From Smithellaceae bacterium (GTDB lineage Bacteria > Desulfobacterota > Syntrophia > Syntrophales > Smithellaceae), in contig OY821638.1 in assembly GCA_963682105.1 (NCBI GenBank), positions 4,821,245 to 4,885,244 of the forward strand: a stretch of DNA of 64,000 nucleotides. The letters run 5' to 3'. A program made the translations under genes and the position numbers. Shown one piece after another: positions 10,197 to 28,384 of the stretch (the stretch's first letter is position 1; every line of letters starts with the position of its first letter). Below the pieces are notes generated by a model. The model was not told where the DNA came from. It made no database searches and saw only the letters and a list, made by a program, of their open reading frames with translations.

Positions 10197-10210
10197 GGAG
10201 AGGGTTGACC

Positions 10211-11485
10211 ATGAAACATATTGACGAATTCTCCCGGTCCGAAGAGTACATCTCCCCGTTTGACAGGCACTTCAGACGCCTGCTCAGAAAAACGATCGAG
10301 GAATCGATCATGCCCTACCGGAGGCAGTATGATGAGGACTGGAAGGATCATCATCTTATCGAGCCTGCATTCCACAGGATCATGGTCGGGCTCGGGCTTC
10401 AAAAGGGCCTGTTTCCTATGGAATATGGAGGGATGGGCCTGGCTAAATCCGATTATTTTTTCAGGGCGGGCTATATGGTCTGCGAGGAACTGGGCAGAGC
10501 CGATACCGGTTTTGCCGTCGCACTGGGAGTGACATACTGGCCCCTGCTCGTGATTTCGGTTGATCCTTATGTGAACGAGCGGCTCATTGCCGAGTTTGCG
10601 CCTATGTTCTGCAATGCGGACAAGGCTGTATTTGCAGCCAATGCAATGACCGAACCCCAGGGAGGTTCCGACATCGAAAACCTCGGCCTGCTCGGCGGTA
10701 AAACCATCCGCACGACGGCCCGCCTCGATGGCGACGAGTGGGTGATCAACGGCCACAAACTCTGGCCCACCAATTCAGGCGGCGTGTCGAAACTGTTCGG
10801 TGTACCTTGCACGACCAAGCCCGGATCAGATGATCCAAATGATTTTGCCTTTATTTATGTGCCTGCCGATCTGCCGGGCGTGACCCAGGGCGGCGCCTAT
10901 GAGAAAGCGGGCATGGCGGCGGACAAGAATGGCGATATCTGGTTGGAGGATGTCCGTGTCCCTTCCTGGTACCGGGCTCACGGTCCGGGCAGGGATGCCG
11001 AGGCCTTCTACCAGCTTATTCCTTTCGGCCAGGTTATGAGCTGCGCATTCCTGACCGGGGCCATGATGAACCTCTATGAGCGACTGTATGAATTTGTATC
11101 CACCCGCACATACAACAATCGTCCGCTCAAAGAGAACGACGCAGTAGCAGGAATCATCGGCCGTATAGCAGGTGACATCGACATTTGCAGAATTCTCGGC
11201 TACGAGTCTGCCATGATCGGGGACCGCAGGAACAAGCCCTATGGGAAGCCGCTGATTTCGGAAGACGTGGTGGGCAGGATCAGAAACATCAAGGACTTCG
11301 TGTCGGATAGAGCGGTGGACTGTTTTGGCAAGGCCATGGACGTGCTTGGCCTCTATGGCGCGGACCGCGACTGGGACATCGAGAAGCACTGGCGCGACAT
11401 TAAGATCGTTCAACTCTGGATGGGTGGCAAGCAGCTCTGCCAGATGGAGGCCGCCCGATACTTCTTTAACTGCGAGACTCTCTGA
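10211..11485 (+). CDS. Acyl-CoA dehydrogenase family protein (atypical C-terminal motif), paralog of the previous gene
   Basis: ATG 10211 is preferred over TTG 10205. Carries AMTEPQGGSD and EKHWRDIKIVQLWMGG, where Met replaces the canonical catalytic Glu. The C-terminal ARYFFNCETL matches ARFFYNCTEI of the neighbour. Confidence 0.8.
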   Translation: MKHIDEFSRSEEYISPFDRHFRRLLRKTIEESIMPYRRQYDEDWKDHHLIEPAFHRIMVGLGLQKGLFPMEYGGMGLAKSDYFFRAGYMVCEELGRADTGFAVALGVTYWPLLVISVDPYVNERLIAEFAPMFCNADKAVFAANAMTEPQGGSDIENLGLLGGKTIRTTARLDGDEWVINGHKLWPTNSGGVSKLFGVPCTTKPGSDDPNDFAFIYVPADLPGVTQGGAYEKAGMAADKNGDIWLEDVRVPSWYRAHGPGRDAEAFYQLIPFGQVMSCAFLTGAMMNLYERLYEFVSTRTYNNRPLKENDAVAGIIGRIAGDIDICRILGYESAMIGDRRNKPYGKPLISEDVVGRIRNIKDFVSDRAVDCFGKAMDVLGLYGADRDWDIEKHWRDIKIVQLWMGGKQLCQMEAARYFFNCETL

Positions 11486-11492
11486 GGTGACC

Positions 11493-11948
11493 ATGGATAA
11501 CAAACAGGACACAGGAATATTGGAAAATCAAACAAGCGTTGCTGAAGAGCTCCTTGCCAGCACCTCCTTCAAGGACAGCCTGCGGCTGTTCCTGAAGAAC
11601 ATCGATCCGGAGTCCGGTCCCGCGCTTGTCCGCACACTTATGGGCAAAGACGTTGAGGTCCCCATGGCGGTAATAAGCGCCATGCCGGCAATAGCGAACT
11701 GCCTTATCAAGATGGCCATGGAAATGGTGGCGCAGATACGGAAATACCCTGCACCGATGCTTACAGGCATGACGGAATCCCTGCTACAGGATGTGGACAG
11801 GGAAACGCTTGCCCGACTGATCGGGGAGATTCGGGAACTCGGCAAAGATATGGCTCCTGTCTTCAGAGCCTTTTCAGCGTCCCTCGAAGAACAGTCTTCC
11901 AAAGAAAAGGAGATGACATCATGCAAACGGGATCTTCCCCGCAAGTAA
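11493..11948 (+). CDS. Hypothetical protein (151 aa), paralog of the next gene
   Basis: ATG at 11493 lies 8 nt after the upstream stop. It shares the pattern ...D(P/S)(E/D)SG...V(R/K)TLMG(K/E)D(V/P)EV... with the downstream ORF. I recognise no family. Confidence 0.6.
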   Translation: MDNKQDTGILENQTSVAEELLASTSFKDSLRLFLKNIDPESGPALVRTLMGKDVEVPMAVISAMPAIANCLIKMAMEMVAQIRKYPAPMLTGMTESLLQDVDRETLARLIGEIRELGKDMAPVFRAFSASLEEQSSKEKEMTSCKRDLPRK

Positions 11949-12565
11949 ATGGCGACATCCTGAAAGCACTCCTGCGGTCCACGCTGGTCAAGGACCTCAT
12001 CAGGATCAACATGAACTCCAGGCATCCTGATTCAGGCAGGAGGACAGTGAAGACGCTTATGGGAGAAGACCCGGAGGTCTTCTTTGCGATCACCGGCGGC
12101 CTTCCCGTGACCGTCAACAACATGATCGGAGCGCTCACCGAGCTGGCGATACAACTGAACAAGTTATCGCCCGAACTTATGAAGTCATTCATGTCAAGCC
12201 TTGCGGACGACATCGACAGAGAGGCGGTCAGGGGGTGCGCAAAAGCCTGGACCGATCTGGCAGCGATGATGCTGCAGGCATCTCCGGAAATGAAGGCTCG
12301 CATTATACAAACCATACTGGCTGAAGGGCCCAGGATCAATGCCAATGCCATCAATGCCTTTTCACGATTCGTGAACGACATCACCCGGGACGACCCCGAG
12401 GCCTTCGGCAGATTCGTATCCAAAGTGACCGAAAACGTTGATGGCAAAGAACTGAGCAAAGCCGCCGCCACCATGACCAACGCTTTCCTCGACCGGAAAA
12501 TGCGCTGGTCGTCCTGGTTCTGGAAGCTGCTGTGGGGCAGGATGAAAAAGAAATTCGGGAGATGA
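11921..12565 (+). CDS. Hypothetical protein (214 aa), paralog of the previous gene
   Basis: AAGGAG (11907-11912) lies 8 nt upstream of the ATG. Overlaps the previous ORF by 28 nt. Mostly helical-looking, with a basic/aromatic C-terminal tail (KMRWSSWFWKLLWGRMKKKFGR). Confidence 0.6.
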   Translation: MQTGSSPQVNGDILKALLRSTLVKDLIRINMNSRHPDSGRRTVKTLMGEDPEVFFAITGGLPVTVNNMIGALTELAIQLNKLSPELMKSFMSSLADDIDREAVRGCAKAWTDLAAMMLQASPEMKARIIQTILAEGPRINANAINAFSRFVNDITRDDPEAFGRFVSKVTENVDGKELSKAAATMTNAFLDRKMRWSSWFWKLLWGRMKKKFGR

Positions 12566-12668
12566 AGCAAAAAGTTATCAGTGCGGGGAACATGATCAAC
12601 GGTATTGTCCGGTTAGCCCCATCACCAAAGTATGCAGCCTCCGTATACTTTAGCCGTAAATTTTGTCC

Positions 12669-12698
12669 TTGACAGACAGGACAAGGTTAAACTATACG
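12669..12698 (+). promoter_or_regulatory. Candidate sigma70-type promoter for the psiF-like gene
   Basis: TTGACA (12669-12674), 18-nt spacer, TATACG (12693-12698). The -35 sits inside an inverted repeat TGTCCT-N8-AGGACA. Sequence pattern only. Confidence 0.3.
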
Positions 12699-12829
12699 AT
12701 GTCAACGCATCATCTATTTTTTAATTAATCTTATTTGTTACGGAAAATCAGGAGAAGAACTCTTATCCCTTTCTGACGGGGAATCGGGCTTATTCTGTTT
12801 TTTCCGAATTAACTCCAAAGGAGGTTTCT

Positions 12830-13204
12830 ATGAAAGGGAAGTGGAAGATTGCAATGGCAGTGACCGTTGTCGCCGCGCTGATCCTGGTTGCGTTTGGCGC
12901 TTTGGCGGTCGAAACGGAGAAAAAAGCCAAGAGTCCCAAACAGCAGGCCCAGCAGGAAAAAATGAAAGCCTGCAATGCCGACGCCAAAGCCAAGGGGCTC
13001 AAGGGCGACGAACGCAAAAAGTTTATGAGTGAATGCCTCAAGGGCGACAAGGACACCTCGGCGACGCCTGCAACGCCGGCCAAAGACACCAAGGCGGCCC
13101 AGCAGGAAAAGATGAAAGCCTGCAACGCCGATGCCAAGGCCAAAGGTCTCAAGGGGGACGAACGCAAGAAATTCATGAGCGAATGCCTCAAGGCCGCTCC
13201 ATAA
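12830..13204 (+). CDS. psiF: PsiF-repeat protein (two PsiF repeats) with signal peptide
   Basis: AAGGAGG precedes the ATG and the N-terminus is hydrophobic. Two copies of AQQEKMKACNADAKAKGLKGDERKKFMSECLK match the PsiF repeat pattern (C-x20-C with KGD.R..FM..CLK). Confidence 0.85.
   Translation: MKGKWKIAMAVTVVAALILVAFGALAVETEKKAKSPKQQAQQEKMKACNADAKAKGLKGDERKKFMSECLKGDKDTSATPATPAKDTKAAQQEKMKACNADAKAKGLKGDERKKFMSECLKAAP
12947..13192. repeat. Internal tandem repeat of the psiF-like gene (2 x 96 nt, period 150 nt)
   Basis: 12947-13042 and 13097-13192 encode 32 identical residues. By my codon-by-codon comparison they differ at 11 synonymous third positions. Confidence 0.9.
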
Positions 13205-13245
13205 TATTCACCCCGACCAAGACTGTATTAACCTGATATTTTGAG

Positions 13246-13280
13246 AAACCGGCCCCAATCGAAACGGGGGCCGGTTTTTT
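13246..13280 (+). terminator. Rho-independent terminator after psiF, possibly bidirectional
   Basis: 11-bp stem AAACCGGCCCC / GGGGCCGGTTT, 10-nt loop, then a T6 run. It sits between the convergent psiF and slp genes. Confidence 0.8.
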
Positions 13281-13290
13281 ATCGCAGGAT

Positions 13291-13818
13291 TTAATGGCGA
13301 TACCGCGGGTAGGGACGCCACGGATAATAATAGTACGGATATGGATTCCAGAAGTACCAGGGGTCATAATAGGAGGGGGTATCCTCCCACTTTTCCCACA
13401 GGTGAAGGGCATTGGACTCGATAACCGGATAAGAGTATGGGTGTTCACCAATCAGCCGTTTTTCTTTTCCCGCAATCTTTCCCACAACCGTTATTTCGCG
13501 ATTTTTGCTGTAAAGGGCCGGGTCAAGAAAACCTCGATGGGAAAGAATAAAACGTCCCGCCGACTTATCCAAATTCGTGGGACGCTTCTGAAAATCGAGA
13601 TCCGTCTGCCTGACGATTATCAGAGTATCATTGGGTTTAGCGATGGTCTCAATGATAACGCCGCCCCAGATGACGCCTTCCCCTTTGAAGTTATCCGGGG
13701 CCTTTAAAACGTCGCTGAATGCGATGTCTCTTTTGACCTCCTGCATAACCTGTTGTGAGAAAGGAGCACAAGAAACGATCAATACGAAAAGGATTGGAAT
13801 GAAAAATTTAGTTCTCAT
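13291..13818 (-). CDS. Slp family outer-membrane lipoprotein, Tyr/Pro/Trp-rich C-terminal tail
   Basis: Lipobox LIVSC. The core VIWGGVIIE...LDFQKRP...SAGRFI...GFLDP matches the Slp pattern. The tail is YYDPWYFWNPYPYYYYPWRPYPRYRH. Confidence 0.8.
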   Translation of the reverse strand: MRTKFFIPILFVLIVSCAPFSQQVMQEVKRDIAFSDVLKAPDNFKGEGVIWGGVIIETIAKPNDTLIIVRQTDLDFQKRPTNLDKSAGRFILSHRGFLDPALYSKNREITVVGKIAGKEKRLIGEHPYSYPVIESNALHLWEKWEDTPSYYDPWYFWNPYPYYYYPWRPYPRYRH

Positions 13819-14352
13819 TTAAAACCCCACTCCCACGCCGCCGCCGATACCGCCGCCGCGGCTTCCACCAACCCCGCCGATGCCGATGCGAAATCGAGGC
13901 GTATTATAGGCGTCATCCGGCTTCCAGAGATAATGTTCACGGGCAGTTATCACGGGATACGTGTAATTGATATCACTGAGCGAGCGGGTGGTCTTGCCTT
14001 CCACCTGTCCTGCCACGGTCAACTTCCTGCCATTTGCATAGATGGTAGGGTCGAGGAAGCCCTTAATGCTGACGATAAAACGGCCTGCTGATTGATCGGC
14101 GTCCGATGGCCGCTGTTGATAGTCGAGGGGCTTTTCCAGAACCTCAATCCACGTTTCGTCAGCCTTCGGGGTTGTCGCAATGATCTGCCCTCCGAGAAGA
14201 ACGATCTTTCCTTTCATTAAATCGGGATCTTTCTGCAGCGCCGTAAAAGAGATACTTTTATCCACGGTGCTCATGGTCGTCTGCGAAATAACGGGAGCAC
14301 AGGCTGATATCAGCGCCACTATACATCCGATGATAACGATTTTTTTACTCAT
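13819..14352 (-). CDS. Slp family outer-membrane lipoprotein, Gly-rich C-terminal tail
   Basis: Lipobox LISAC. The core VLLGGQIIA...LDYQQRP...SAGRFI...GFLDP matches Slp. The tail is IGIGGVGGSRGGGIGGGVGVGF. It abuts the downstream slp paralog with no gap. Confidence 0.8.
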   Translation of the reverse strand: MSKKIVIIGCIVALISACAPVISQTTMSTVDKSISFTALQKDPDLMKGKIVLLGGQIIATTPKADETWIEVLEKPLDYQQRPSDADQSAGRFIVSIKGFLDPTIYANGRKLTVAGQVEGKTTRSLSDINYTYPVITAREHYLWKPDDAYNTPRFRIGIGGVGGSRGGGIGGGVGVGF

Positions 14353-14563
14353 TATTGACCTCGCTTTCCAATCGCGGGGGGTCGAGGTTTGTTAGAGAAC
14401 AACCAGATTGATCCATGCAACAACTACAACTTAAAGGTATTCTTTGTTCACAAAAAGTCAAGGGGATATTTATCCAATCAGTTGAGATTTTATCCGATAG
14501 AAATCACAATTCATGTCCGTTGTTCAATACGTACCGCTAATGATTTTCGAAAGCAGTATTACC

Positions 14564-14592
14564 TTGACAGGCCATAATGAAAAATATAAAAA
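14564..14592 (+). promoter_or_regulatory. Candidate sigma70-type promoter of the PqqD/HprK-like operon
   Basis: TTGACA (14564-14569), 17-nt spacer, TAAAAA (14587-14592). This is mutually exclusive with translation of the 30-codon ORF that starts at 14577. Confidence 0.3.
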
Positions 14593-14669
14593 AACTCTGC
14601 TTTGTCAGACAGGACGCAGACGCAAAAGAGCAGAAATTCATATTCTTTTCGGGAGTTCAGCATGTTTGA
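14577..14669 (+). CDS. Speculative 30-codon ORF (MKNIKKLCFVRQDADAKEQKFIFFSGVQHV) overlapping the PqqD-like start
   Basis: I translated it by hand. Its stop TGA (14667-14669) overlaps the PqqD-like ATG (14662) by 8 nt. The only upstream SD-like element is a weak AGG. No homology evidence. Confidence 0.15.
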   Translation: MKNIKKLCFVRQDADAKEQKFIFFSGVQHV

Positions 14670-15102
14670 TATATCTCAGCAAGTCATTCACGAAACCATC
14701 GACGGCGAAACGATGATTGTCCGTCTCGACAGCGGCAATTATTACAGCATGAATCCGATTGGCGGCCAGGTCTGGGCCTTGATTGAACAGGGGGCGTCAA
14801 AAGATCAGATTGTCTCCGCGTTTTCCGGGCTTTACGGCCTTGAAAAAAAGAGCGTTGAAGAGCCGATAGAAACTTTCCTCAAGTATCTCATTGTAGAAGA
14901 ACTGATTCTTCCCAACGGGGCGTCGTCGCATGCAGGCGCGGTGTATTCGCCCGCCGGCATGGAGCGCCTGACGGATTTCTTTGAACCGCCGCTTCTTTCC
15001 AAATATTCCGATATGCAGGAACTGCTCATCCTCGATCCCATTCATGACGTAAGCGATGCAGGCTGGCCGAATCCCAAGCCGGAAAAAGAGGATAATGGAT
15101 AA
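14662..15102 (+). CDS. PqqD family protein (RiPP-recognition-element-type peptide chaperone)
   Basis: ATG 14662 lies 6 nt after GGGAG. ETMIVRLDSGNYYSMNPIGGQVWALIEQGASKDQIVSAFSGLYGL...VEEPIETFLKYLIVEELI is the PqqD pattern. A ~55-aa C-terminal extension follows. Confidence 0.8.
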   Translation: MFDISQQVIHETIDGETMIVRLDSGNYYSMNPIGGQVWALIEQGASKDQIVSAFSGLYGLEKKSVEEPIETFLKYLIVEELILPNGASSHAGAVYSPAGMERLTDFFEPPLLSKYSDMQELLILDPIHDVSDAGWPNPKPEKEDNG

Positions 15103-16231
15103 CAGAGAAATCGGGCGGGAACCGCTTGCGACGGTGGAGCCTGCGGAAAGTCATGCGCTTCTCGACGCCTACTTCGATTCCGCACTGAAAATATTTATAT
15201 CCGCACAGGCAACGCACACCGGGCCTGTCAAAAAGTATTTCACGCTTTGCGGCAAAACCATAGAACTGACCTTTGCCAATGAGCGGCTTCTTCCTTACAT
15301 AACTCCTGCACTGGAACATATTGCGGCTTCCGCCGTGGACAGCCCTGCGCTTAAAGTCTTCATCTGGGACGATGCGACGACCGGAACCGTTATGCCCGCA
15401 CCGCCCTGGTTCGGCTATGCCGTGCAGAAGCAAGGCGGTCATCTGGAAGGCCTCTATACAAGACGGGGCGATGTCCGGGGGTTCAACAGCAGCCGCATCA
15501 AAACCGCTTACAACTGGTCCGCCAATGCGCTCAGCATGTATGACGCCGGCGAAGCAACAGCCCTGTACTGGACGAGGGACGCTCGGGATTTGCCTGCCTA
15601 TGAGACAAGCGCACCGATTCGAAACATTCTCAACTGGTGGGCCCAGGAGCGCAATTACCATTTTGCACACGGGGCGGCGGTCGGGACCGCGGACGGCGGA
15701 GTGCTTCTTGCGGGCAAGGGCGGATCGGGCAAGTCCACGGCGGCGCTGGCCTGCCTGAACTCGGGCCTGTTTTACGCAAGCGACGATTATTGCCTGGTTA
15801 CCGCGGACCCTGTGCCTGCGGCGTACAGCATATTTTCTTCCGCCAAGGTCGATCCCGGAAACATTTTCAGGGTTGAGCATATCGCGCCGTCGCGGGGCAG
15901 AACCGGAAACAAGTATGACGATAAAGAAGTCTTTTTTCTGTATCCGCGATTTGCCGACCGGATCATTCCGGGGTTTCCGCTGCGAGCCATCCTGCTGCCC
16001 CGGATCACCGGCAAGCCGCATTCGGCCTTAAGCCCGGCAACGCCGGCCGACGGCGTCAAGGCCCTGACCATCAGCACGATGTGCCAGTTTCCCGGCGCGG
16101 GTAAAAAAGTGGTGGATATCATGCAGCGCCTCGCCGCGGCGCTGCCCTGTTATCATCTGGATTTCGGGACGGACCCGGCACAGGTTCCCGCGTTGATTCT
16201 GAATCTGCTTGAAAAGAGAAAGGATGGATAA
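15095..16231 (+). CDS. HPr-kinase C-terminal-domain-like P-loop protein (HprK-related kinase)
   Basis: ATG 15095 overlaps the PqqD-like stop (ATGGATAA). The P-loop LLAGKGGSGKSTAALACL followed by FYASDDYCLV resembles the HprK GxSGxGKS...ADD core. Confidence 0.7.
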   Translation: MDNREIGREPLATVEPAESHALLDAYFDSALKIFISAQATHTGPVKKYFTLCGKTIELTFANERLLPYITPALEHIAASAVDSPALKVFIWDDATTGTVMPAPPWFGYAVQKQGGHLEGLYTRRGDVRGFNSSRIKTAYNWSANALSMYDAGEATALYWTRDARDLPAYETSAPIRNILNWWAQERNYHFAHGAAVGTADGGVLLAGKGGSGKSTAALACLNSGLFYASDDYCLVTADPVPAAYSIFSSAKVDPGNIFRVEHIAPSRGRTGNKYDDKEVFFLYPRFADRIIPGFPLRAILLPRITGKPHSALSPATPADGVKALTISTMCQFPGAGKKVVDIMQRLAAALPCYHLDFGTDPAQVPALILNLLEKRKDG

Positions 16232-16234
16232 GCC

Positions 16235-17419
16235 GTGAAGATCATCATGCTCAGCCCTTTTACGCCGTACCCGCCGGATTCGGGCGGACGCATCCGTCAA
16301 TGGGAGTTCATCAAATGTCTGGGCAGACGCCATGATCTGACGATCGTCTTTTTTATCAACAAAGGGGAGGAAAAGATTCTCGAAGGCGCCTTTGACGGCG
16401 TCTGTTCCCGGGTGGCCACGATTACACACGCTGGAGATACGGCGCCGACAGGCCCGCAATCTCTGCCCTGGCCGATGCGTTCCTACGGCGTGGAACCCAT
16501 GCGGAAGCTGCTTACGGAACTGGCCGCCAATCGCTATGATCTGCTCCTGACCGACTTTATTTACATGGCCCAGCACCGCTCCCTTTTTGACGCGCCGGCC
16601 GTCCTTCATGAGCACAACATCGAATCATCCATCTACAAACAATACTCCGAACTTCCCAATGTGCAGGATATGGAGATTTTCGGCATCCGGAAAGATGCTC
16701 TTTTCTGGAAGGCAACCTGGATGCTCATGCGTCAGTACGAAAACAAGACATGGCCCGCGTTCGATCTTCGGATTACCGTAAGCCGGCTCGATAAGACCCA
16801 GATGGACTCGCGCTGTCCGGACGGGCGAACCATTGTTGCCGAAAACGGCGTCAACACAAAGGACATTCGGCTGCTGCCGGTCAACCGTTCCAAGAAGATT
16901 CTGTTTGTCGGCACGATGAATTATTTTCCCAATGTAGATGGAGCTTTGTTTATGGTCCAGTCCATCATGCCCCATATCCGGCGTCTGGATCCGGATATCC
17001 GGCTGTGCATCGCGGGAAAAGATATTCCCCGTCATATTCGTGAGCTCGGCGCGGATACCCGGATAGAGATTATCTCTGATTTCCCGGATATTTCTGAGGT
17101 GGCGGCGGACTGTTGCCTGTCGGTGGTTCCTTTGAGGCTGGGCGGCGGTACGCGCATCAAAATACTCGAAGCCTTCGCCTTGGGACTGCCGGTGGTTTCC
17201 ACCGCAAAGGGATGCGAGGGGCTTGATGTTGAAGACGGCCGGCAGCTTGTTATCCGGGATGATCCGGAAGCCTTTGCCGAAGCGGTGGTCAGAGTTGCCA
17301 ACAACCATGAGCTGGCCGACTCGCTCCGCGAAAACGGCCGCAGTCTTGTGGAAGGACGATACGACTGGCAAAAGATATTCGAAACAGCCGAAGAGCAAAT
17401 GCTGAAACTGGTAAAATAA
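16235..17419 (+). CDS. Glycosyltransferase family 4 (GT-B, group 1)
   Basis: GTG start 3 nt after the upstream stop. N-terminal MKIIMLSPFTPYPPDSGGRIR; C-terminal SVVPLRLGGGTRIKILEAFALGLPVVST (EX7E-type region). Confidence 0.85.
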   Translation: MKIIMLSPFTPYPPDSGGRIRQWEFIKCLGRRHDLTIVFFINKGEEKILEGAFDGVCSRVATITHAGDTAPTGPQSLPWPMRSYGVEPMRKLLTELAANRYDLLLTDFIYMAQHRSLFDAPAVLHEHNIESSIYKQYSELPNVQDMEIFGIRKDALFWKATWMLMRQYENKTWPAFDLRITVSRLDKTQMDSRCPDGRTIVAENGVNTKDIRLLPVNRSKKILFVGTMNYFPNVDGALFMVQSIMPHIRRLDPDIRLCIAGKDIPRHIRELGADTRIEIISDFPDISEVAADCCLSVVPLRLGGGTRIKILEAFALGLPVVSTAKGCEGLDVEDGRQLVIRDDPEAFAEAVVRVANNHELADSLRENGRSLVEGRYDWQKIFETAEEQMLKLVK

Positions 17420-18789
17420 TGGACTCCCGGGTCGCAAGAAGCATCTATGAATTTCTTCGTCGCATCCTCAAACGGCGCTTCCGGATGATTTTCTTTTCGC
17501 CGGCAAGGGCCTTGAAGGCTGCATACCGTAAACCGGCAAGCCAGAATACGAACGCTTCGCTTGATGCAACAGGGCGTAACGTCCGGACGGCAAAGGAAAT
17601 TTCCATCCAGGAGAATGTCATTTCCTATCCGCTGACGGCGGCAACAGGCGAAAATGAACCGGGCATCCTCTATTTTGGAGGGCTTGCCAACCCTGAAACG
17701 CAAACGCTGATCCGCGAAGCCATCCATTGCCGTGGAATGGTTTGCAGTCAATCGCTTCCGGCAACCTCGGTTGAAAAGCAAATTCCTGTCAACTGTCTGG
17801 AAATCCGGCAACCGGTTCTTTACGGGGGAATCCTTTTTAACCATTTCGGTCATTTCATTCTGGAATCATTATCCCGGTTATATGCCTATCCGATGGTTCG
17901 GGACATTGATCCGTTTGTGTTGTTTTATAGCCAATGGGGGATCCCAAGGTACCTGGAGAAAAATAACTTTGTCAACCAGATCCTCACGGGACTCGGTATT
18001 CCGGTGCACAGACTGATCTTTGTTGAACGCGTCGCCAAAATTCGCACAGTCATCATTCCGGATCAAAAGTACGGCTTTGGATTGACCCGCCGGCCGGACG
18101 AGATGTTTTTGACGTTCATCAGAAGTTTTCGTTTTCAATATAAGATTCCCGGGGGGCTTAAAAAAGCGGAAAAGATCTACGTATCAAGATCCGGATTGCG
18201 CAATAAAGGAAGACAAATCGGCGAAAAGATTTTCGAGGCGTATCTCGCCGGCGAAGGATACGGAATATTTTATCCTGAACGGCATACCTTTTTCGAACAA
18301 TTGACGGTATACGCCCGCGCCGGAAAGCTGATTATCTCGGAGGGGAGCGCATTATTTTCATGTATGTTTCTCCCGGAAATGAACGCGGATATTGCCGTCG
18401 TCTGCAGAAGAAGAGAGCCGGATCACAGCATGCGCGGAGTAACGGACTGCCTGCATGATTCTGGCAGGAACATCCTGTGGATCGATGCCGTGCGCGAACA
18501 ATATCAATTTGGTCTCGATACCTGGGATGCGCTGGCTGATATCGACTGGTGCGAGGTGAGCCGTCTGTTGCGGAATCATGGTTTTGTAAATAATCCGTTC
18601 CGGCGCTTAGCCGACGACAAACATCTGGCGCTTGTCCGGTCCGAGCTCCGGGAATATCTGCGTGAGATATCCGGAAACCCGAAATTTGTCGATCACATGA
18701 TGCAATTAAAAGAAATCCACCCGTTCCGGATCGAACCTCTCGATCCTGGCGATTCCCGGGGTGGGGTAAAAGAGAGAAATCAGATATGA
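17419..18789 (+). CDS. Glycosyltransferase family 61 / DUF563 protein
   Basis: GGILFNHFGHFILESLSRLY and the later ISEGSALFS are the DUF563/GT61 hallmarks. The start overlaps the upstream stop (TAATG). Confidence 0.75.
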   Translation: MDSRVARSIYEFLRRILKRRFRMIFFSPARALKAAYRKPASQNTNASLDATGRNVRTAKEISIQENVISYPLTAATGENEPGILYFGGLANPETQTLIREAIHCRGMVCSQSLPATSVEKQIPVNCLEIRQPVLYGGILFNHFGHFILESLSRLYAYPMVRDIDPFVLFYSQWGIPRYLEKNNFVNQILTGLGIPVHRLIFVERVAKIRTVIIPDQKYGFGLTRRPDEMFLTFIRSFRFQYKIPGGLKKAEKIYVSRSGLRNKGRQIGEKIFEAYLAGEGYGIFYPERHTFFEQLTVYARAGKLIISEGSALFSCMFLPEMNADIAVVCRRREPDHSMRGVTDCLHDSGRNILWIDAVREQYQFGLDTWDALADIDWCEVSRLLRNHGFVNNPFRRLADDKHLALVRSELREYLREISGNPKFVDHMMQLKEIHPFRIEPLDPGDSRGGVKERNQI

Positions 18790-19496
18790 AGAAAAACGAA
18801 TCCATCAGTGTCATCATCCCGGTATACAACGGGGAGCGTTACATTGCCGAGGCCGTCGGAAGTGTCCTTGCACAGGATTACCCCCGGATCGAAATCGTCG
18901 CGGTGGATGACGGATCAACCGACCGCACCGCCGAATTACTGCGGTCTTATGCGAATGTGCACTACGTCTGTCAATCCAGACTGGGGGCTTCAGCCGCGCG
19001 CAACAACGGCGTTCGCTGTTCGTCAGGCGATTGGCTTGCCTTTCTGGACGCGGATGATCTCTGGATGCGCGATAAGCTGAAAGTGCAGACCGCCCTGTTG
19101 CGGACCAATCCCGACCTGGACATGGTTTTCGGATATGTCGAACAGTTCTACAGCCCGGAACTCGAGGCGTCGCTGAAAAGCAAAATAAAATTTGCCGAAG
19201 GCAGCATGCCCGGATATGTTCCGGGCTCCATGCTCGTCCGGAAAGATTCCTTTCTGAAGGTTGGCTTCTTCAATGAGGCATTCAAGATAGGTGAGTTCAT
19301 TGACTGGTACACGAGAGCGCTGGATTACGGTTTGAACGGTCATCTTGCCCGGGAAGTTGTGTTAAGAAGACGAATTCATGACGCCAATACCGGCATTCGG
19401 GAAAGGGATTCCCGCAAGGATTATCTGCGGGTGCTGAAAGCTTCGCTGGACAGACGAAGAATGAACGAAAAGAGAAAAGAGGCCGGTGGCGAATGA
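18786..19496 (+). CDS. Glycosyltransferase family 2
   Basis: ISVIIPVYNGERYIAEAVGSVLAQDYP..EIVAVDDGSTDRT plus the LDADD motif. ATGA overlap with the upstream gene. Confidence 0.9.
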   Translation: MKKNESISVIIPVYNGERYIAEAVGSVLAQDYPRIEIVAVDDGSTDRTAELLRSYANVHYVCQSRLGASAARNNGVRCSSGDWLAFLDADDLWMRDKLKVQTALLRTNPDLDMVFGYVEQFYSPELEASLKSKIKFAEGSMPGYVPGSMLVRKDSFLKVGFFNEAFKIGEFIDWYTRALDYGLNGHLAREVVLRRRIHDANTGIRERDSRKDYLRVLKASLDRRRMNEKRKEAGGE

Positions 19497-20650
19497 CGAC
19501 CGATAAAGAAGGCTTTTTCTGGCCGACGCACGAGCAGGAATTACTTCTTCAAGCGACGCTGCTCAAAGAGGAAAATGCCGTCACCGCATGGCGCAGTTGG
19601 GCCGCTTGCGTTAATTTCGATCGGCTGGATGCCGGCTCTCAGCGCCTTTTGCCCCTGCTTTATAAAAACCTCACCGATCAAAAGGTGAGGCATCCGGTTC
19701 TCGATGTGTACAAGGGGTTTTACCGGATGACCTGGTACAAGAACCGCCTTTTGTGCCATCGCATTACCGGTGTTTTACGTCTTCTGAATCAGCACGGCAT
19801 AGCGGCTCTGTTGTTGAAGGGGGCTGCTCTGGTCTCCCTTTATTATAAGGATTGGGCTCTGCGTCCGATGAATGACTTCGATTTGCTGGTGGAGCAGGAC
19901 CAGGTGATGAAAGCCGTTGAGCTTTTGTGCCGAAACGGCTGGACCCCGGTTGATTCACCGCCCGCCGAATCGGACTTTCAGACCCGGCATGCCTGTACGC
20001 TCACCGATGGTTCTGGCATCGAATTTGACCTTCACTGGCGGATCATGCATGAATCAGGCTGCAATGATGTTGATGACAACTTCAAGGGCAGCGCCATGCG
20101 GATCGATTTTTGCGGGGTTTACGTGTCCGTGCTGTCCCACACGGACCAGCTTTTTCACGTTCTTGTTCACGGCGTACGCTGGAACGTTATCGCGCCCCTG
20201 CGATGGGTTCCCGATGCAATGATGGTTTTGCGGGAAGCAGGATCGAAGATAGACTGGAACAGATTATTGCAGGAAGCCCGCGGCAGACGCCTTGTCGTCT
20301 CCCTGAAAAAATCGCTTACCTATCTTTATGACGGGTTTGCCGCGCCGATTCCGACTGACATCATGGCAACGGTGAAAAGATTGAAGCCGTCTGTGACGGA
20401 GCGACTGGAGTTTTGGATGAACAGCCGGCCCCGGGGGCTTCTGAGGGATATTGTTTATCTCTGGTTTACGCATGTCAGGACATCCGGCACTTCGGGATCG
20501 GTCAGGCTGTTGCTCCGATTTCCCTCTTTTCTCAGAACATTCTGGAAGGCGCCGGAGAAAAAGAACACGGCGGGTTTTCTGTTGGGCCGACTGATCAGAA
20601 GAATCTTTAATGGCGCCGGAGCATCACCCGGACAAAACCCGGCCGCCTGA
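19493..20650 (+). CDS. Uncharacterised nucleotidyltransferase family protein (NTP_transf_5 / PF14907-like)
   Basis: LLLKGAALVSLYYKDWALRPMNDFDLLVEQDQ...FDLHWRIMH matches the family pattern (LKG...R...D.DLLV...DLH). ATGA overlap with the upstream gene. Confidence 0.75.
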   Translation: MTTDKEGFFWPTHEQELLLQATLLKEENAVTAWRSWAACVNFDRLDAGSQRLLPLLYKNLTDQKVRHPVLDVYKGFYRMTWYKNRLLCHRITGVLRLLNQHGIAALLLKGAALVSLYYKDWALRPMNDFDLLVEQDQVMKAVELLCRNGWTPVDSPPAESDFQTRHACTLTDGSGIEFDLHWRIMHESGCNDVDDNFKGSAMRIDFCGVYVSVLSHTDQLFHVLVHGVRWNVIAPLRWVPDAMMVLREAGSKIDWNRLLQEARGRRLVVSLKKSLTYLYDGFAAPIPTDIMATVKRLKPSVTERLEFWMNSRPRGLLRDIVYLWFTHVRTSGTSGSVRLLLRFPSFLRTFWKAPEKKNTAGFLLGRLIRRIFNGAGASPGQNPAA

Positions 20651-20699
20651 AGAAGAGCCGCTGCTCGTAAGAAAATCACTGAAGAGGTATAATATTTTA

Positions 20700-22470
20700 A
20701 TGATTGCCGCCTTGTTAAAAAAAATATCAGGCGACTGGTATAATGAAAACATTTATTTCAAATATCGGATTCATAAAATGTCCCCCTGGAAGCGCATGCC
20801 GGCGCGATTTATTTTCCTGCCCATGGCCTTCGGGAGAAGACTCAACAAGTTCATCCGCGATAGACTGGAAATACCCGGCGTGGAAATGTCCATCATCACT
20901 CCCTGCAACCCGCATTGCAGAGACTGTGAAAGCCTGAATCCTCTTCATCCGCAACCGGTTGCTCCGGACATCGACCGGCTTATCAGGGATGCAAACGATT
21001 TTTTGTTCCACGTGGATTGTGTGCACCGCCTGATGATTACAGGCAGCGAGCCCTTTGCTTATCGTGAATTCCCTGCGCTCTTGACTTACCTGCTTGGGCA
21101 GGACAAAATTAATCTGGTGCATCTTTTCACCCGCGGTTCGGTTCTTCCAGGACCGGATATTCTGCAGTTACTCAGGCATCGCAAAATCCTGGTGACGATC
21201 AGCAGTTATCCGGCGGAAGATTCGCCGGATAAACCCCGTTTCATTGCCGTTATGGAAGAAAATTGCATCAATTACATGGTGAAAGATACCTGGCGGGATC
21301 TGGGCAGTTTCAATCCTGTTGCGGATGGCAGTCTGGACGCCATGAAACACCGTTTTGCAAGATGTGTCAGCAGAGTTCATAATCTGAACGGCGGCGAGTA
21401 CCATCTGTGCCCCCGGTCGGCTCATGGCCGGCAATTGAGACAGTTTTCTCCGGAGAAGCCGGAGAGCGTGATCTTCCGGGACAGGAAAAACCCTCAGGCG
21501 TTTAAAAAAGAGATGCGGCAACTTCTGCTGAAAAAGTATCTTACCGCCTGTCGCCAATGCGGGGGAAGCCGCAGAGAAACAAAAATGGACATCCTGTTAC
21601 AGACATTGTCGGGAAGATGGTACAATGAAAATATTTACTATAAATATCACATCCACAAGATGTCGCCGGGGCGGCAGGATGCAGCGCGGCTCTTGTTCCT
21701 GCCTTTGTCCATGGGGATAAAACTCAACAGTGCGATACGTCATCGATTGGAAATACCGCATATCGAACTGCCGATTACCACCCGCTGCAACCTGCGCTGT
21801 AAAGACTGCGGGAATTTAATTCCTTTTTATCCGCGTCCGGCTGATTTTGACGTGGAACAGTTGATTCAGGATGCCGATGACTTTCTGAATCATGTGCATC
21901 GGGTTCACCGTTTTATCGTTATGGGCGGTGAAACCTTTCTCTACCGGGAATTGCATCGATTATTAAGTCACCTGATTCAACAAAACAAGATTGGTCTTCT
22001 GCACCTTTTTACCAATGGTTCCGTCATCCCCAAAACAGAGATCCTGCAATTGCTGAAGCATCGCAAAATCCTGGTGTCCGTGAGCAGTTTCCCGGCGGAG
22101 GTGTCCCCCAACAAAGCCCGTTTCATTGATATCCTCGAAGAAAACCATATCAATTATAAAATAGAAGATCATTTGTGGCGGGATCTGGGCGGCATCAATC
22201 CGGACGTGGACAGCCGTCCGGAAACACTGAAGCGTCGTTTCGCCAATTGCAGCATTAAAGGGTGCCATAACTTGAGCAACGGCGAATATCATTTATGTCC
22301 CCGATCTGTTCATGGTGAGCAGTTGGGACAATTTGTGCCGGATGCCTCGGACAAAGTGGTCATCCGGAACCGGAAGGATCCCCATGCCTTTAAAAAAGAA
22401 CGGCAGGCTTTGCTTCGGAAAGAATATCTTGCCGCCTGCAGCAGATGTACGGGCAAACCCGAAGAAACCG
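20700..22470. repeat. Intragenic tandem duplication (module 1 20700-21584; module 2 21585 to about 22470)
   Basis: Aligning the two halves by eye gives roughly half identical residues and no stop codon between them. Confidence 0.85.
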
Positions 22471-22592
22471 TTTATCCGGGCATTCAGATATCCGGGGGTG
22501 TTGCAGATATAATCGGAAAAAACGACAGGCCGTCTTCAGAGGCCCGGGGAAAAAATCAGGATATTTCCGATCTTGCCCGCCTGAAAATCTGA
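20700..22592 (+). CDS. Fused twin radical-SAM enzyme (two paralogous ~295-aa rSAM modules in one ORF)
   Basis: Module 1 has ITPCNPHCRDC and module 2 has ITTRCNLRCKDC (both CxxxCxxC). Each module starts with ...SG.WYNENIY.KY.IHKMSP and ends with YL.AC..C. Start ATG 20700 is chosen by symmetry with the module 2 Met at 21585; the ORF is also open from 20610. Confidence 0.8.
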   Translation: MIAALLKKISGDWYNENIYFKYRIHKMSPWKRMPARFIFLPMAFGRRLNKFIRDRLEIPGVEMSIITPCNPHCRDCESLNPLHPQPVAPDIDRLIRDANDFLFHVDCVHRLMITGSEPFAYREFPALLTYLLGQDKINLVHLFTRGSVLPGPDILQLLRHRKILVTISSYPAEDSPDKPRFIAVMEENCINYMVKDTWRDLGSFNPVADGSLDAMKHRFARCVSRVHNLNGGEYHLCPRSAHGRQLRQFSPEKPESVIFRDRKNPQAFKKEMRQLLLKKYLTACRQCGGSRRETKMDILLQTLSGRWYNENIYYKYHIHKMSPGRQDAARLLFLPLSMGIKLNSAIRHRLEIPHIELPITTRCNLRCKDCGNLIPFYPRPADFDVEQLIQDADDFLNHVHRVHRFIVMGGETFLYRELHRLLSHLIQQNKIGLLHLFTNGSVIPKTEILQLLKHRKILVSVSSFPAEVSPNKARFIDILEENHINYKIEDHLWRDLGGINPDVDSRPETLKRRFANCSIKGCHNLSNGEYHLCPRSVHGEQLGQFVPDASDKVVIRNRKDPHAFKKERQALLRKEYLAACSRCTGKPEETVYPGIQISGGVADIIGKNDRPSSEARGKNQDISDLARLKI

Positions 22593-26817: not shown

Positions 26818-28311
26818 TTAAACCATTTTTGTCAGCGTTCCGGGTTTCAGTTGTTCGATTCCCGCAAGGTAATTGGCAAGATGTTCCCGAAGTTTGATGT
26901 CGTACTGGGATGTGATGGCAATCTGCTCCATGATGGGTGATCCGCCGCCGTGATAGTTGCCATAGTTCATCGATCCGGTGGCTGAGGAACAGGTAAAATC
27001 AATGAAGGACAGCCAGAACCGAATCTGATGCTCGATCGGTATTTTGGGATTGCGCATCAGGTATTTCTCCAGTGTTGCTTTGGTTTCCGGATTGGTGAGA
27101 TCACCTTCATAGGGGAATGTGGCTGGCAGGCCGCCTGCGATGTTGCAGAGAATTTCCTGCTCGTGGAAGACGGCTTCGCCGGTGAGGCATCGGCCCACAT
27201 TGGCATAAATCGAATTCGGGATGTAGCTGCCCGGTCCGTAGGGTATGGGGCCCATTCCCGGGACATAAATTTCAGGCTTTGCCGTGGCCGATGCGGTAAA
27301 GCCCGCCGCATAACCCAGTTCCGAAACCGTGATGATTTCCGCCAGCATTTCCCGGATGTGCGATTCTTTCCTGATGCCATTGACATTGGCGGCCTGCGAA
27401 GCCATGCCCAGAAGAACATCACCGATCGCCGGCTTGCAGCCTGAATAGCTGTGACGGTGAAACAGCGCAAACAGAAGGGCGCAGGCGCCGCCGTGCATAT
27501 TTTCCCCGCAGAGGAACACGCGTTCCCACGGCACAAAGACGTTATCAAAGACCACATAGGAATCCGTATAACCCCCATCAAAGCCCCGTTGGTAATGCTT
27601 ACGCTCGCGCATCGCATGGATATGGACGATTTGCCTTACTCCCTCATGATCGGCCGGGACGGCAAACGCAACGGCATAGTCTTTCTCATCCGGACCCAGC
27701 GCGCGGGTGGGCACAACCATAATTTCATCGGCAATCGACGCCTCCGAGATATGGACTTTGCAGCCATTGACAACGATGCCGTCTTTCTTTTTTTCCACCA
27801 CATGAAGGTATGCATCCGGATCCGTCTGCTCGGCCGGTCTTTTCAATCGCTCGCCTTTCACATCCGTCTGGGCGCTGCACCCCACCAGATCGTTTTTCTG
27901 GAAATAGTCAAGCCACTTCAGAAAATTTTTATGGTATTCCGTGTTGCCGTTGTTCTGCTTGTCGGCTTCGAAGGAAGCGGCATTGACGGCGTTGAGCGCA
28001 TCGCATCCCATGCACCGCTGGATGCATAAGCCGACCTTCCTGCAAAGGGCACGCGTCATGTTCTGCTTTTTATGCAGATCCTCAGGAGACTGATGAACAT
28101 GGCAGAACCGGTTGATGATTTCACCTGATAAATGGGATTTGGCCGTGCACAGGTCTTTGAGCTCGGGATCGCATGCGGCGTCAAAAGTAACGCCCATGAC
28201 ATTAAGAACCTTCTGCTGGACTTCATCGGTTCGGTCAATTTTATTCCCGTCAAAAAATAAATTCCGCCGCATCTTTCTTAAGCCTTCTACGTATTGCTCT
28301 CTCGTTCTCAT
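26818..28311 (-). CDS. 4-hydroxybutyryl-CoA dehydratase / vinylacetyl-CoA isomerase family protein (AbfD-like), paralog 1
   Basis: 497 aa with AAAGGAGG SD. It has CIQRC (Cx3C) and HRHSYSGC (Hx6C), matching the AbfD [4Fe-4S] ligand spacing (C99/C103/H292/C299 in the Clostridium enzyme, from memory). Confidence 0.8.
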   Translation of the reverse strand: MRTREQYVEGLRKMRRNLFFDGNKIDRTDEVQQKVLNVMGVTFDAACDPELKDLCTAKSHLSGEIINRFCHVHQSPEDLHKKQNMTRALCRKVGLCIQRCMGCDALNAVNAASFEADKQNNGNTEYHKNFLKWLDYFQKNDLVGCSAQTDVKGERLKRPAEQTDPDAYLHVVEKKKDGIVVNGCKVHISEASIADEIMVVPTRALGPDEKDYAVAFAVPADHEGVRQIVHIHAMRERKHYQRGFDGGYTDSYVVFDNVFVPWERVFLCGENMHGGACALLFALFHRHSYSGCKPAIGDVLLGMASQAANVNGIRKESHIREMLAEIITVSELGYAAGFTASATAKPEIYVPGMGPIPYGPGSYIPNSIYANVGRCLTGEAVFHEQEILCNIAGGLPATFPYEGDLTNPETKATLEKYLMRNPKIPIEHQIRFWLSFIDFTCSSATGSMNYGNYHGGGSPIMEQIAITSQYDIKLREHLANYLAGIEQLKPGTLTKMV

Positions 28312-28342
28312 ATGGGCCTCCTTTGAATAGTTAATATATTGA

Positions 28343-28366
28343 ACAGTACTGTCTGTTATTACAGAC
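28343..28366. promoter_or_regulatory. Overlapping palindromes in the abfD1 leader
   Basis: ACAGTACTGT (28343-28352) is a perfect 10-bp palindrome. GTCTGT-TATT-ACAGAC (28351-28366) is a perfect 6-bp-arm inverted repeat. Confidence 0.35.
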
Positions 28367-28384
28367 TTGATTTTGCATGTTAAA

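Follow-up and report, generated by a model that had tools for sequence, protein, structure and literature searches.

Which molecule is modified by an operon that encodes a putative leader-binding protein, a kinase, three glycosyltransferases (GTs) and a radical S-adenosylmethionine (SAM) enzyme, when no separate precursor gene accompanies them? This question is raised by seven tightly packed genes (g1 to g7) located on the + strand, between nucleotides 14662 and 22592, of a 64,000-nt stretch of contig OY821638.1 from a Smithellaceae bacterium. This whole stretch is referred to here as the window. A first-pass annotation of the DNA had described the operon as lacking a precursor. We present a candidate: the conserved C-terminal tail of the PqqD-like protein g1, which starts with a leader motif of the lasso type. 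The PqqD-like protein is assigned to the RREs (recognition elements of RiPPs, peptides which are made on ribosomes and modified after translation). That the operon is a self-contained, RRE-guided phospho-glycosylation pathway with the g1 tail as its substrate is a proposal that we consider evenly balanced between right and wrong.

The coordinates and junctions of the seven genes were re-read from the sequence and agree with those first given. The genes are the following:

14662–15102, + strand: g1, 146-aa PqqD-family RRE protein, in which a variable linker joins an RRE domain to a conserved tail
15095–16231, + strand: g2, 378-aa HPr-kinase-like (ScmC-like) P-loop kinase
16235–17419, + strand: g3, GT4 glycosyltransferase with a GTG start, a lineage-variable accessory
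17419–18789, + strand: g4, GT61/DUF563 glycosyltransferase, a rare accessory
18786–19496, + strand: g5, GT2 glycosyltransferase, conserved core
19493–20650, + strand: g6, PF14907 (NTP_transf_5) nucleotidyltransferase-fold protein, conserved core
20700–22592, + strand: g7, internally duplicated radical-SAM enzyme

The overlap between g1 and g2 is ATGGATAA; g2 and g3 are separated by 3 nt (GCC), the g3/g4 junction is TAATG, those of g4/g5 and g5/g6 are ATGA each, and the 49-nt gap between g6 and g7 contains a GAAGAGG ribosome-binding site. When the domain assignments made at first sight were checked against Pfam, PF05402, PF13692/PF00534, PF04577, PF00535, PF14907 and PF04055 (in two stretches) were recovered, and PF07475 was not.

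The RRE protein and its tail

Profile comparisons and a structure model assign g1 to the lasso B1 type of RRE. The protein scored 42.4 bits against PF05402 (PqqD; cut-off 23.4) and 51.6 bits against the NCBIfam model lasso_PqqD_Bac, under its cut-off of 80; the next models were of the WgkC type and ScmD. A profile of the g1 family matched the solved RREs TbiB1 (8e-16), PbaB1 (7e-14), TfuB1 (3e-6) and LppB (4e-6). In the AlphaFold2 (AF2) model of g1, for which the predicted local distance difference test score (pLDDT) is 80.8, residues 1–84 match by Foldseek the TbiB1-leader complexes 5v1u and 5v1v with a target template modelling score of 0.88. Members of the g1 family are 140–155 aa long, whereas discrete RREs have about 85–100 aa. 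The RRE domain and the elements of the C-terminal tail are located as follows:

14662–14913, + strand: RRE (winged-helix) domain of g1, residues 1–84, aligning with TbiB1 over residues 4–85
14977–15069, + strand: g1 tail, residues 106–136, candidate built-in leader plus substrate
14980–14997, + strand: leader-like F107-x-x-P110-x-L112 of the tail
15001–15015, + strand: K114-Y-S-D-M118 of the tail
15034–15045, + strand: D125-P-I-H128 of the tail
15061–15069, + strand: G134-W-P136 of the tail

The tail is near-invariant and is the best-conserved part of the g1 family, with the consensus FxxPxLxKY[S/T]DMQELLxLDPIH[D/E]V..GWP. Residue counts were taken over 133 g1-family sequences. Position 107 is F in 131 of them and Y in two; P110 is kept in 132, the remaining sequence having A; position 112 is L, I or V in all 133. 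K114 occurs in 131, Y115 in 129 (F in the other four), S or T at position 116 in 129, D117 in every sequence and M118 in 131. The block 125–128 reads DPxH in 133/133, its third residue being I in 132 and V in one, and GWP (134–136) is present in 130/133. Taken as a whole, the motif [F/Y]xxPx[L/I/V] is found in 132 of the 133 sequences, and distant loci such as L016 and L018 (L numbers designate the related loci described below) have an exact YxxPxL in the tail. Every sequence examined keeps at least one of the hydroxyls of Ser/Thr116 and Tyr115.

This motif corresponds to what such domains recognise. Discrete RREs of lasso and LPP systems bind [Y/W]xxPx[L/V/I/F/A] (PMC13381572, PMC10368454). 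In RRE-leader structures the aromatic residue and the Leu occupy two hydrophobic pockets, with the Pro between them, and in the crystal structures the residues just past the leader motif extend the beta-sheet of the RRE (PMC13381572, PMC10368454). In the AF2 model of g1, the linker (residues 85–100) is of low confidence, and pLDDT amounts to 88 for residues 101–110 and 82 for residues 111–120. A predicted strand (112–115) comes directly after F107xxP110xL112 and is followed by a helix (118–123); the position of the modelled strand is that of the register seen in RRE-leader crystal structures. From pLDDT and the DSSP assignment of secondary structure, we infer that the FxxPxL of the tail docks in the RRE cleft.

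The 46-residue tail alone was searched against 1.84 billion cluster representatives (50% identity). At E<=0.001 it retrieved 1,667 proteins, nearly all of them of about 150 aa and with the match at the C-terminus. Tail-bearing PqqD proteins span about ten phyla, and at the related loci the tail motif occurs once per locus, in the PqqD gene only.

Separate genes were also considered as precursors. The first-pass annotation had suggested looking for a conserved small open reading frame (ORF), and none lies beside the operon in the window or in L001, L002 and L020. Because no such ORF precedes the operon in the window and in these three close relatives, the 30-codon ORF at 14577–14669 (+ strand; MKNIKKLCFVRQDADAKEQKFIFFSGVQHV), which ends ATGTTTGA over the g1 start codon, was rejected as a precursor, L001, L002 and L020 having no conserved counterpart of it. 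Its start would moreover lie upstream of the likely transcription start, and it is probably not a gene. In L003, L007, L015 and other loci, the small ORFs that precede the module have no mutual similarity and look spurious. The representative search also returned stand-alone tail proteins of 45–53 aa, of which P0340 and P0350 were not accepted as separate precursors. P0340, at L027, is a 45-aa tail ORF on a contig of long-read style, where it shares 20 nt with a 105-aa PqqD ORF read in a different frame; a frameshift artefact is the probable explanation, and a genuine split of the PqqD gene from its tail at L027 the less likely one. P0350 begins 37 nt from a contig end and was not taken as evidence.

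A candidate promoter lies 5' of g1:

14564–14592, + strand: promoter-like site read from the sequence, with TTGACA, a 17-nt spacer and a weak -10 TAAAAA

A TTGACA or TTGACT box is found at the equivalent place 5' of the PqqD gene in L001, L002 and L020, and the site at 14564 is plausible as a candidate promoter of the operon. A scan for consensus promoters did not flag it, its -10 failing the rule. No terminator was found after g7 in the scan.

Related loci

Scanning one genome per species, together with homologue look-ups, gave 28 related loci. They belong to Smithella and other Smithellaceae, Nitrospiraceae, Cyanobacteria, Bacillota, Planctomycetota, Margulisiibacteriota, Anaerolineae, Acidobacteriota, Binatia, Rhodobacteraceae and unclassified metagenome contigs, and cover about ten phyla. 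According to tblastn and clustering, the recurring core consists of the PqqD gene, the kinase gene, GT2 genes (one to five copies, sometimes fused to one another) and one or two PF14907 genes. The recurrence of the module at 28 loci of many phyla means that the arrangement of the operon did not arise by chance.

A GT2 gene, in one to five copies, adjoins the kinase gene in 25 of the 28 loci, and tblastn detected a PF14907 gene in 22. By the same means, a g3-type GT4 was found in ten of the 28 and a g4 (GT61) orthologue in L001 only. A g7-type gene is present in four loci besides the window, as a twin in L001, L002 and L023 and as a single unit in L022. It had been claimed at first that glycosyltransferases split a trio of PqqD, kinase and nucleotidyltransferase genes, and it had been asked whether GT and twin radical-SAM additions recur across genomes. 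The GT2 does recur and is itself conserved core, so the first statement has to be withdrawn; GT4, GT61 and the twin radical-SAM enzyme are lineage-specific additions and not general ones.

Other components vary from locus to locus. An MsbA-like ABC exporter is encoded inside the module in L006, L008, L014 and L025. The remaining accessories include short-chain dehydrogenases/reductases (SDRs), a fusion of tetratricopeptide repeats with two GT2 domains (TPR-GT2-GT2), a sulfotransferase, a GlcNAc (N-acetylglucosamine) 2-epimerase and a gluconolactonase-like protein, as well as GT10, GT25, an APH-type kinase and other radical-SAM/SPASM proteins. Neither an Asn-synthetase-like cyclase nor a B2 protease was found in the annotated relatives L020 and L022–L027.

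The surroundings of the module also vary by locus and are mostly not polysaccharide loci. In L020 a tRNA-Met gene (9338–9414) precedes the module, which also lies next to housekeeping genes; the tRNA gene may mark an insertion site. The module of L025 (9586–20078) lies directly after ftsZ and includes, besides four GT2 genes, one for an ABC exporter and a radical-SAM gene of a different kind. Those of L022 and L023 are placed among catabolic genes, and the surroundings of L024 are likewise unrelated housekeeping or catabolic genes. In L026 the module (9541–14453), which includes a triple-GT2 fusion, is on the opposite strand within genes for the lipopolysaccharide (LPS) core and lipid A (Kdo kinases, GT9, LpxK, WaaA, MsbA and LpxB); it is the sole annotated relative among LPS genes.

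In L010 (Bacillota; 4350–7677), the tail-bearing set is preceded, at a distance of about 5 kb, by a second one made up of a tail-less PqqD gene, a kinase-like gene and a PF14907 gene. This upstream set may belong to a system of the LPP or lasso kind whose precursor is encoded separately; no small ORF with YxxPxL was found near it. L012 (7020–9698), from Candidatus Margulisiibacteriota SAG AM-311-D06, is the sole locus whose RRE (87 aa) has no tail. There, a 37-aa ORF (7299–7412) begins 16 nt past the stop codon of the RRE gene and has a perfect AAGGAG ribosome-binding site. Its product, MDKNKTVKKIEEKEEYTKPTIDKHDPINSAAIGTPPS (..EEYTKPTIDKHDPIN..GTPPS), contains YxxPxI and DPI and ends with a C-terminal Ser, the position that paeninodin-type kinases phosphorylate. 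The next gene encodes a GT2 that has at its C-terminus a PqqD domain of its own (33.6 bits, cut-off 23.4), and the kinase gene comes after it; the contig ends before any PF14907 gene could be seen. As read from these sequences, L012 supports a natural split version of the system, in which a separate peptide goes with a GT2-RRE fusion. In L027 (5703–9779), the kinase and the GT2 are fused in one protein of 610 aa. The split in L012, its GT2-RRE fusion and the kinase-GT2 fusion of L027 support a peptide as the substrate.

The enzymes, the proposed pathway and its alternatives

The motifs of g2, g6 and g7 are located as follows:

15668, + strand: His192 of g2, invariant
15713–15739, + strand: P-loop GKGGSGKST of g2, conserved
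15779–15793, + strand: SDDYC of g2, conserved
19817–19885, + strand: KG...DFD signature of g6, nucleotidyltransferase (NTase) type
20904–20927 (CNPHCRDC) and 21786–21809 (CNLRCKDC), + strand: CX3CX2C motifs of g7, one per half

The protein encoded by g2 scored 20.4 bits against PF07475 (HPr kinase C), under the cut-off of 33.3, and the HPr-kinase-like identity first given to it is nevertheless borne out by other evidence. The profile of its family matches the HPr kinase/phosphatase structures 1knx (E 9e-4) and 1ko7 across the H..GxGGxGKS..DD segment. The AF2 model (pLDDT 89.7) has its best fold matches with phosphoenolpyruvate carboxykinases (PEPCKs; E 4e-10) over both domains. In the family, H192, G207, G210, G212, S214, T215 and D230 are invariant, and K213 and D231 are at least 90% conserved. 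With the P-loop GxGGxGKS, the upstream His, the downstream Asp-Asp and the PEPCK-like fold of the model, g2 is assigned by sequence and model to the HprK/PEPCK P-loop superfamily. It is not an HPr kinase proper, because against TIGR00679 (bona fide HprK) it reached only 19.7 bits, the cut-off being 240. More than 700 homologues are detectable; they carry precomputed matches to PF27840 (ScmC) that are graded weak or faint. In the lasso-peptide kinase BsfK, the His, the Gly, Lys and Ser of the P-loop and the Asp-Asp are essential by mutagenesis, and the RRE BsfB1 strongly stimulates activity. All the residues essential in BsfK are kept in g2. BsfK, LppK and PadeK phosphorylate a Ser of RRE-bound precursors.

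With respect to the glycosyltransferases, g3 scored 84 bits against PF13692 and 51 bits against PF00534 (GT4), g4 46.7 bits against PF04577 (cut-off 27) and g5 118 bits against PF00535. The best NCBIfam model for g3 is TIGR03087, a PEP-CTERM/XrtA exopolysaccharide (EPS) transferase (148 bits, under the cut-off of 317). The g6 protein matched PF14907 with 145 bits (cut-off 31.2); neither NCBIfam nor the PDB gave a sequence match for it. Of 22 PF14907 family members, 11 keep the NTase signature, and at loci with two copies it is typically one of them that does. Two PF14907 paralogues occur in L003, L004, L007, L008, L015 and L017, often one of them upstream of the PqqD gene and the other at the end of the module. 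The strict pattern KG...R..DxD is usually held by one of the two, and the paralogue that does not have it may be catalytically inactive, judging from its sequence. Two relatives by comparison bear on the role of g6: pseudomycoidin receives one or two hexoses on its phospho-Ser through PsmN, and LppN was inactive in the LPP study, the authors of which suspected a missing partner (PMC13381572). By analogy, the neighbouring GT2 is a candidate for a missing partner of the LppN type.

The twin nature first noticed in g7 is confirmed. PF04055 matches two stretches, and the halves (20700–21650 and 21651–22592) are 55% identical. In addition to CX3CX2C, each half has four further conserved Cys (at an RC/NC position, in HLCPRS and in ACxxC), as expected for auxiliary clusters of the twitch/SPASM type; cluster binding is predicted from these motifs. 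The best NCBIfam model, a twitch-domain radical-SAM model, gave 40.6 bits, under its cut-off of 170, and no curated subfamily cut-off was reached; the best PDB sequence match is 7wzv (1.5e-7). Among 5.8 billion proteins, 27 homologues were found. All g7 copies whose neighbourhood was read (those of the window, L001, L002, L022 and L023) adjoin a PqqD-kinase-GT-PF14907 cassette. PADLOC gave no match to a defence system, save a generic radical-SAM likeness to viperins.

A pathway can be proposed from these parts, the steps of which we all infer. The RRE of g1 would bind the tail's FxxPxL, either within one g1 molecule or from one molecule to another, and present KY[S/T]DM..LDPIH..GWP to the enzymes. 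A tail hydroxyl, for which Ser116 and Tyr115 are the best candidates, would then be phosphorylated by g2. In a PsmN-like manner, g6 would attach a first sugar, a sugar-phosphate or a nucleotide to the phosphate. As the gene content suggests, the glycan would be extended by the core GT2 (g5), joined in the present lineage by GT4 (g3) and GT61 (g4), and g7 might further modify, in a lineage-specific way, either the glycan or one of the tail residues, for instance His128 or Trp135. Because neither protease nor exporter was found among the scanned ORFs of the window, the product would be a cytoplasmic phosphoglycoprotein of about 16 kDa, or it would be released by unlinked factors.

Several points weigh against the tail as substrate. 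No single tail hydroxyl is invariant: four of the 133 sequences have no S or T at position 116, and four have F in place of Y115. In BsfA and LppA the phosphorylated Ser comes 18–19 residues after the aromatic anchor, and in g1 this distance falls on D125-P126 of DPIH instead of a Ser or Thr. The cores of RiPP natural products vary, and a near-invariant "core" is unusual among them; it suits a cofactor-like or structural product, or a docking interface, better than a RiPP antibiotic. The confidence of the tail in the AF2 model could reflect instead a contact between two molecules or an over-confident prediction, and the two-domain PEPCK-like fold predicted for g2 would also suit a small-molecule substrate. 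When the L012 peptide was aligned with the tail by hhalign, the register was the expected one, at an E of 0.27 and thus without statistical support. Finally, the core has no protease, yet four loci have MsbA-like exporters, a combination more in keeping with the release of a small product than with a 16-kDa protein. Because of these objections on acceptor, spacing, invariant core and protease or exporter, we take peptide- or protein-directed phospho-glycosylation as a general class to be probable, and rate the g1 tail itself as the substrate a little short of an even chance.

The conservation of the tail may be read in another way, namely that it is an adaptor or pseudo-leader. Its FxxPxL would fill the RRE cleft in cis and keep the RRE activated, the helix, DPIH and GWP would dock the enzymes, and the true acceptor would be an unlinked peptide, protein or small molecule. 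Such extreme conservation fits a protein-protein interface with several conserved enzymes, and an adaptor would need no invariant Ser, Thr or Tyr, of which the tail has none. RREs can potentiate partner enzymes, and LppB is insoluble without its peptide (PMC13381572), so that a fused leader could merely stabilise the RRE. Against this, no candidate for an unlinked substrate is known and no other protein in the loci has the tail motif. In L012, moreover, the RRE is tail-less, a small peptide has a gene to itself and the GT2 carries a further RRE, which is the arrangement of an ordinary precursor and not that of a docking handle. We therefore consider the adaptor unlikely.

Returning to the tail as substrate, its most specific form would make the PqqD protein a ribosomal scaffold that carries its own leader and substrate, with a phosphodiester-linked oligosaccharide on the tail and radical chemistry in Syntrophales. 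We put this forward tentatively, as somewhat less probable than the tail being the substrate at all. If true, bacteria from cyanobacteria to Planctomycetota would share a conserved phosphoglycosylation of a protein that serves as a dedicated carrier, and the modified tail or a fragment released from it would be a conserved cofactor-like, signalling or envelope glycoconjugate instead of a variable antibiotic. A phosphodiester-linked glycan on the protein would also make protein phosphoglycosylation a widespread bacterial modification. RRE domains are a class-independent handle for RiPP mining, and an RRE with its own leader-like motif and core would be a new pathway organisation. It would explain the thousands of PqqD-only proteins longer than 110 aa for which no precursor is detectable. 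The size of the family (1,667 representatives) and the compact set of RRE-tail protein, kinase, PF14907 protein and GT2 give a handle on the function of PF14907, left open for PsmN, BsfN and LppN. The narrow family of twin radical-SAM enzymes would then have a defined substrate as well.

A second alternative concerns the glycosyltransferases, and bears on the genes around the operon. The flanks of the operon are unrelated to its genes, and the window copy sits among catabolic genes. Its neighbours include the following:

12830–14352, directly upstream of the operon: PsiF-repeat gene (+ strand) and two tandem genes for Slp-family outer-membrane lipoproteins (- strand)
26818–31217: two HpaB-type (4-hydroxyphenylacetate 3-hydroxylase-like) paralogues flanking an AraC-family regulator, with an AMP-ligase, an amidohydrolase and two SDR genes adjoining

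The Slp genes are transcribed divergently from the operon, and two acyl-CoA dehydrogenase genes (+ strand) lie further upstream. The two SDR genes and those for the amidohydrolase, the AMP-ligase and HpaB, downstream, are convergent to the operon. At 40383–43753 (- strand), 18–21 kb downstream of the operon, are genes for an NAD-dependent epimerase/dehydratase, a GDP-mannose 4,6-dehydratase and a UDP-glucose/GDP-mannose dehydrogenase, which could supply sugar donors for it. Larger parts of the window (29–8924, + strand, and 34488–38942, - strand) are taken up by a gene set of the 2-hydroxyacyl-CoA dehydratase/benzoyl-CoA-reductase type. It comprises three HGD-D subunits, two BcrAD/BadFG activators, a CdhC-like protein, a CbiA/MinD-type ATPase, a ferredoxin-domain protein and a 1,484-aa double-activase protein with DUF2229, and is typical of anaerobic aromatic or amino-acid catabolism in Syntrophales. 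Elsewhere, an 823-aa radical-SAM protein with Radical_SAM_N2 and DUF2344 is encoded at 58212–60683 (- strand). The nearby segment 55044–57963 (+ strand) encodes first a pilin-like protein, which has an N-terminal methylation motif, and then a protein of 663 aa that matches nothing in Pfam.

According to this alternative, the operon would make a polysaccharide, a glycolipid or a small-molecule glycoconjugate: the kinase would act on a sugar or on a lipid-linked or soluble intermediate, the PF14907 protein would activate or transfer it, the GTs would build an oligosaccharide, and the RRE would be a recruited scaffold. The high and variable GT content of the module (one to five GT2, plus GT4, GT10, GT25 or GT61) is in agreement with this, as are the SDR, GlcNAc 2-epimerase, sulfotransferase and gluconolactonase-like accessories of related loci, the location of L026 among LPS-core and lipid A genes, the presence of LPP and paeninodin clusters in capsule loci, the below-cut-off preference of g3 for an EPS transferase model, the PEPCK-like two-domain fold of the kinase and the nucleotide-sugar genes in the window. 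The operon nevertheless has no priming polyprenyl-phosphate transferase, flippase or polymerase, and membrane helices were predicted in none of its seven proteins. As regards Wzx/Wzy- or ABC-dependent polysaccharide loci, no priming GT, exporter or polymerase/chain-length regulator adjoins the GTs. The scan of the window covered 41 ORFs, about 20 mostly shorter ones being left out. Among those 41 there is no lasso cyclase, B2-type (transglutaminase-like) protease, ABC exporter or Wzx/Wzy protein, which agrees with the absences stated in the first-pass annotation, and neither there nor in the operon is there a peptidase. The surroundings in the window, L020, L022, L023, L024 and L025 are unrelated housekeeping or catabolic genes; the relatives do not always lie inside EPS/LPS loci with Wzx/Wzy genes, L026 being the single case in an LPS context. 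Furthermore, the RRE is similar to proven leader binders, a matching leader motif is under strong selection, and a GT2-RRE fusion exists in L012. A polysaccharide or small-molecule product is, in our judgement, decidedly improbable. The early inference of a pathway directed to a peptide or protein, distinct from an ordinary polysaccharide locus, is supported by the B1-type RRE, by the BsfK residues of g2, by the GT2-PqqD and kinase-GT2 fusions, by the missing Wzx/Wzy, priming transferase and membrane proteins of the operon and by surroundings that change from locus to locus.

Comparison with known systems

The combination of PqqD-like, HprK-like and PF14907 proteins had first been identified with the HPr-rel-A system. 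The general trio of protein types is the same, and the PF14907 protein is encoded in the same operon; the curated models are not matched. Against TIGR04352, g2 scored 26.5 bits, and against TIGR04355 (HprK-related kinase B) slightly more, 33.1 bits, both cut-offs being 200, and g1 gave no match to TIGR04353 (PqqD family chaperone) even at E<=10. That identity is consequently abandoned. The co-occurrence of the three types and the preference of the RRE for lasso B1 models might otherwise suggest either an instance of HPr-rel-A or a lasso cluster degenerate by loss of the genes A, B2, C and D. The module is intact, widespread and under selection, has its own tail and GT2, and shows no Asn-synthetase-like cyclase or B2 protease at any of the 28 loci, which is not the pattern of decay; with the TIGR04352 and TIGR04353 results, this makes both very hard to believe.

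SynChlorMet cassettes (ScmC/ScmD/ScmE/ScmF; TIGR04248–04251) are also similar in having a PqqD-like protein, an ScmC-like (HprK-like) protein and two radical-SAM modules, with a precursor that has not been identified. Scores were 18 bits for ScmD (cut-off 100) and 21 bits for ScmE (cut-off 400), and g7 differs in forming a separate, narrow family whose Cys pattern is twitch-like instead of that of a full SPASM domain. To our knowledge, Scm cassettes have not been described with GT2 and PF14907 genes (TIGRFAMs description).

A closer likeness is to the kinase/nucleotidyltransferase (K/N) tailoring branch of lasso peptides, represented by paeninodin (PadeK), ThcoK/SyanK, pseudomycoidin (PsmK/PsmN) and Bsf (BsfK/BsfB1/BsfN). 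Shared with it are a B1 RRE, a protein of the NTase fold and an HprK-like kinase whose catalytic residues are identical. The RRE is of the B1 type, yet the NCBIfam lasso_PqqD models stay below their cut-offs. The present operon and its relatives differ in having no precursor A, B2 protease, C cyclase or D exporter of that kind; a leader-like motif was found inside g1 only. No lasso can form, since A, B2, C and D are found neither among the scanned ORFs of the window nor in the related loci. The operon has instead several dedicated glycosyltransferases and a radical-SAM enzyme.

The other close likeness is to LPP, the lppA-K-B-S-D-N system of Paenibacillus alginolyticus (Popov et al., Nat Commun 2026, PMC13381572). 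Both are non-lasso and RRE-dependent, with a discrete RRE of the lasso type, a kinase resembling HprK, an uncharacterised NTP-transferase and an RRE-binding motif [Y/W/F]xxPx[L/V/I]; in both the final product is undefined and glycosylation is suspected. The trio agrees by protein types. An MsbA-like exporter (LppD) belongs to the LPP core, whereas here it is found in relatives L006, L008, L014 and L025 and not among the scanned window ORFs. The present system differs further from LPP in that it has no leader peptidase of the SpI type and no separate precursor gene, in that the RRE carries the leader-like motif and a near-invariant "core" as a fusion, and in having GT2 as a regular neighbour. 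The LPP consensus YxxPxVLxHQxIxFETxxS, with its phosphorylated Ser3, is not present, the tail consensus being different. LPP is restricted to Bacillota, in contrast to the ten or so phyla of the present system, and the g1 profile is closer to the lasso B1 proteins TbiB1 and PbaB1 than to LppB.

RRE-Finder surveys (PMC7470986, PMC12710340) list RRE-glycosyltransferase fusions as uncharacterised and describe neither an association with the kinase and PF14907 nor the tail; the GT2 of L012 is a PF00535-PF05402 fusion of the kind listed there. Searches on PF14907 and "HprK-related kinase" returned nothing on the present system, and no description of it was found in the searchable literature. The operon resembles the lasso K/N branch and LPP in its working and is a member of neither, because it lacks a separate precursor, a leader peptidase (B2 or SpI) and a cyclase, and adds to the shared set a GT2 and a leader/core tail fused to the RRE itself.

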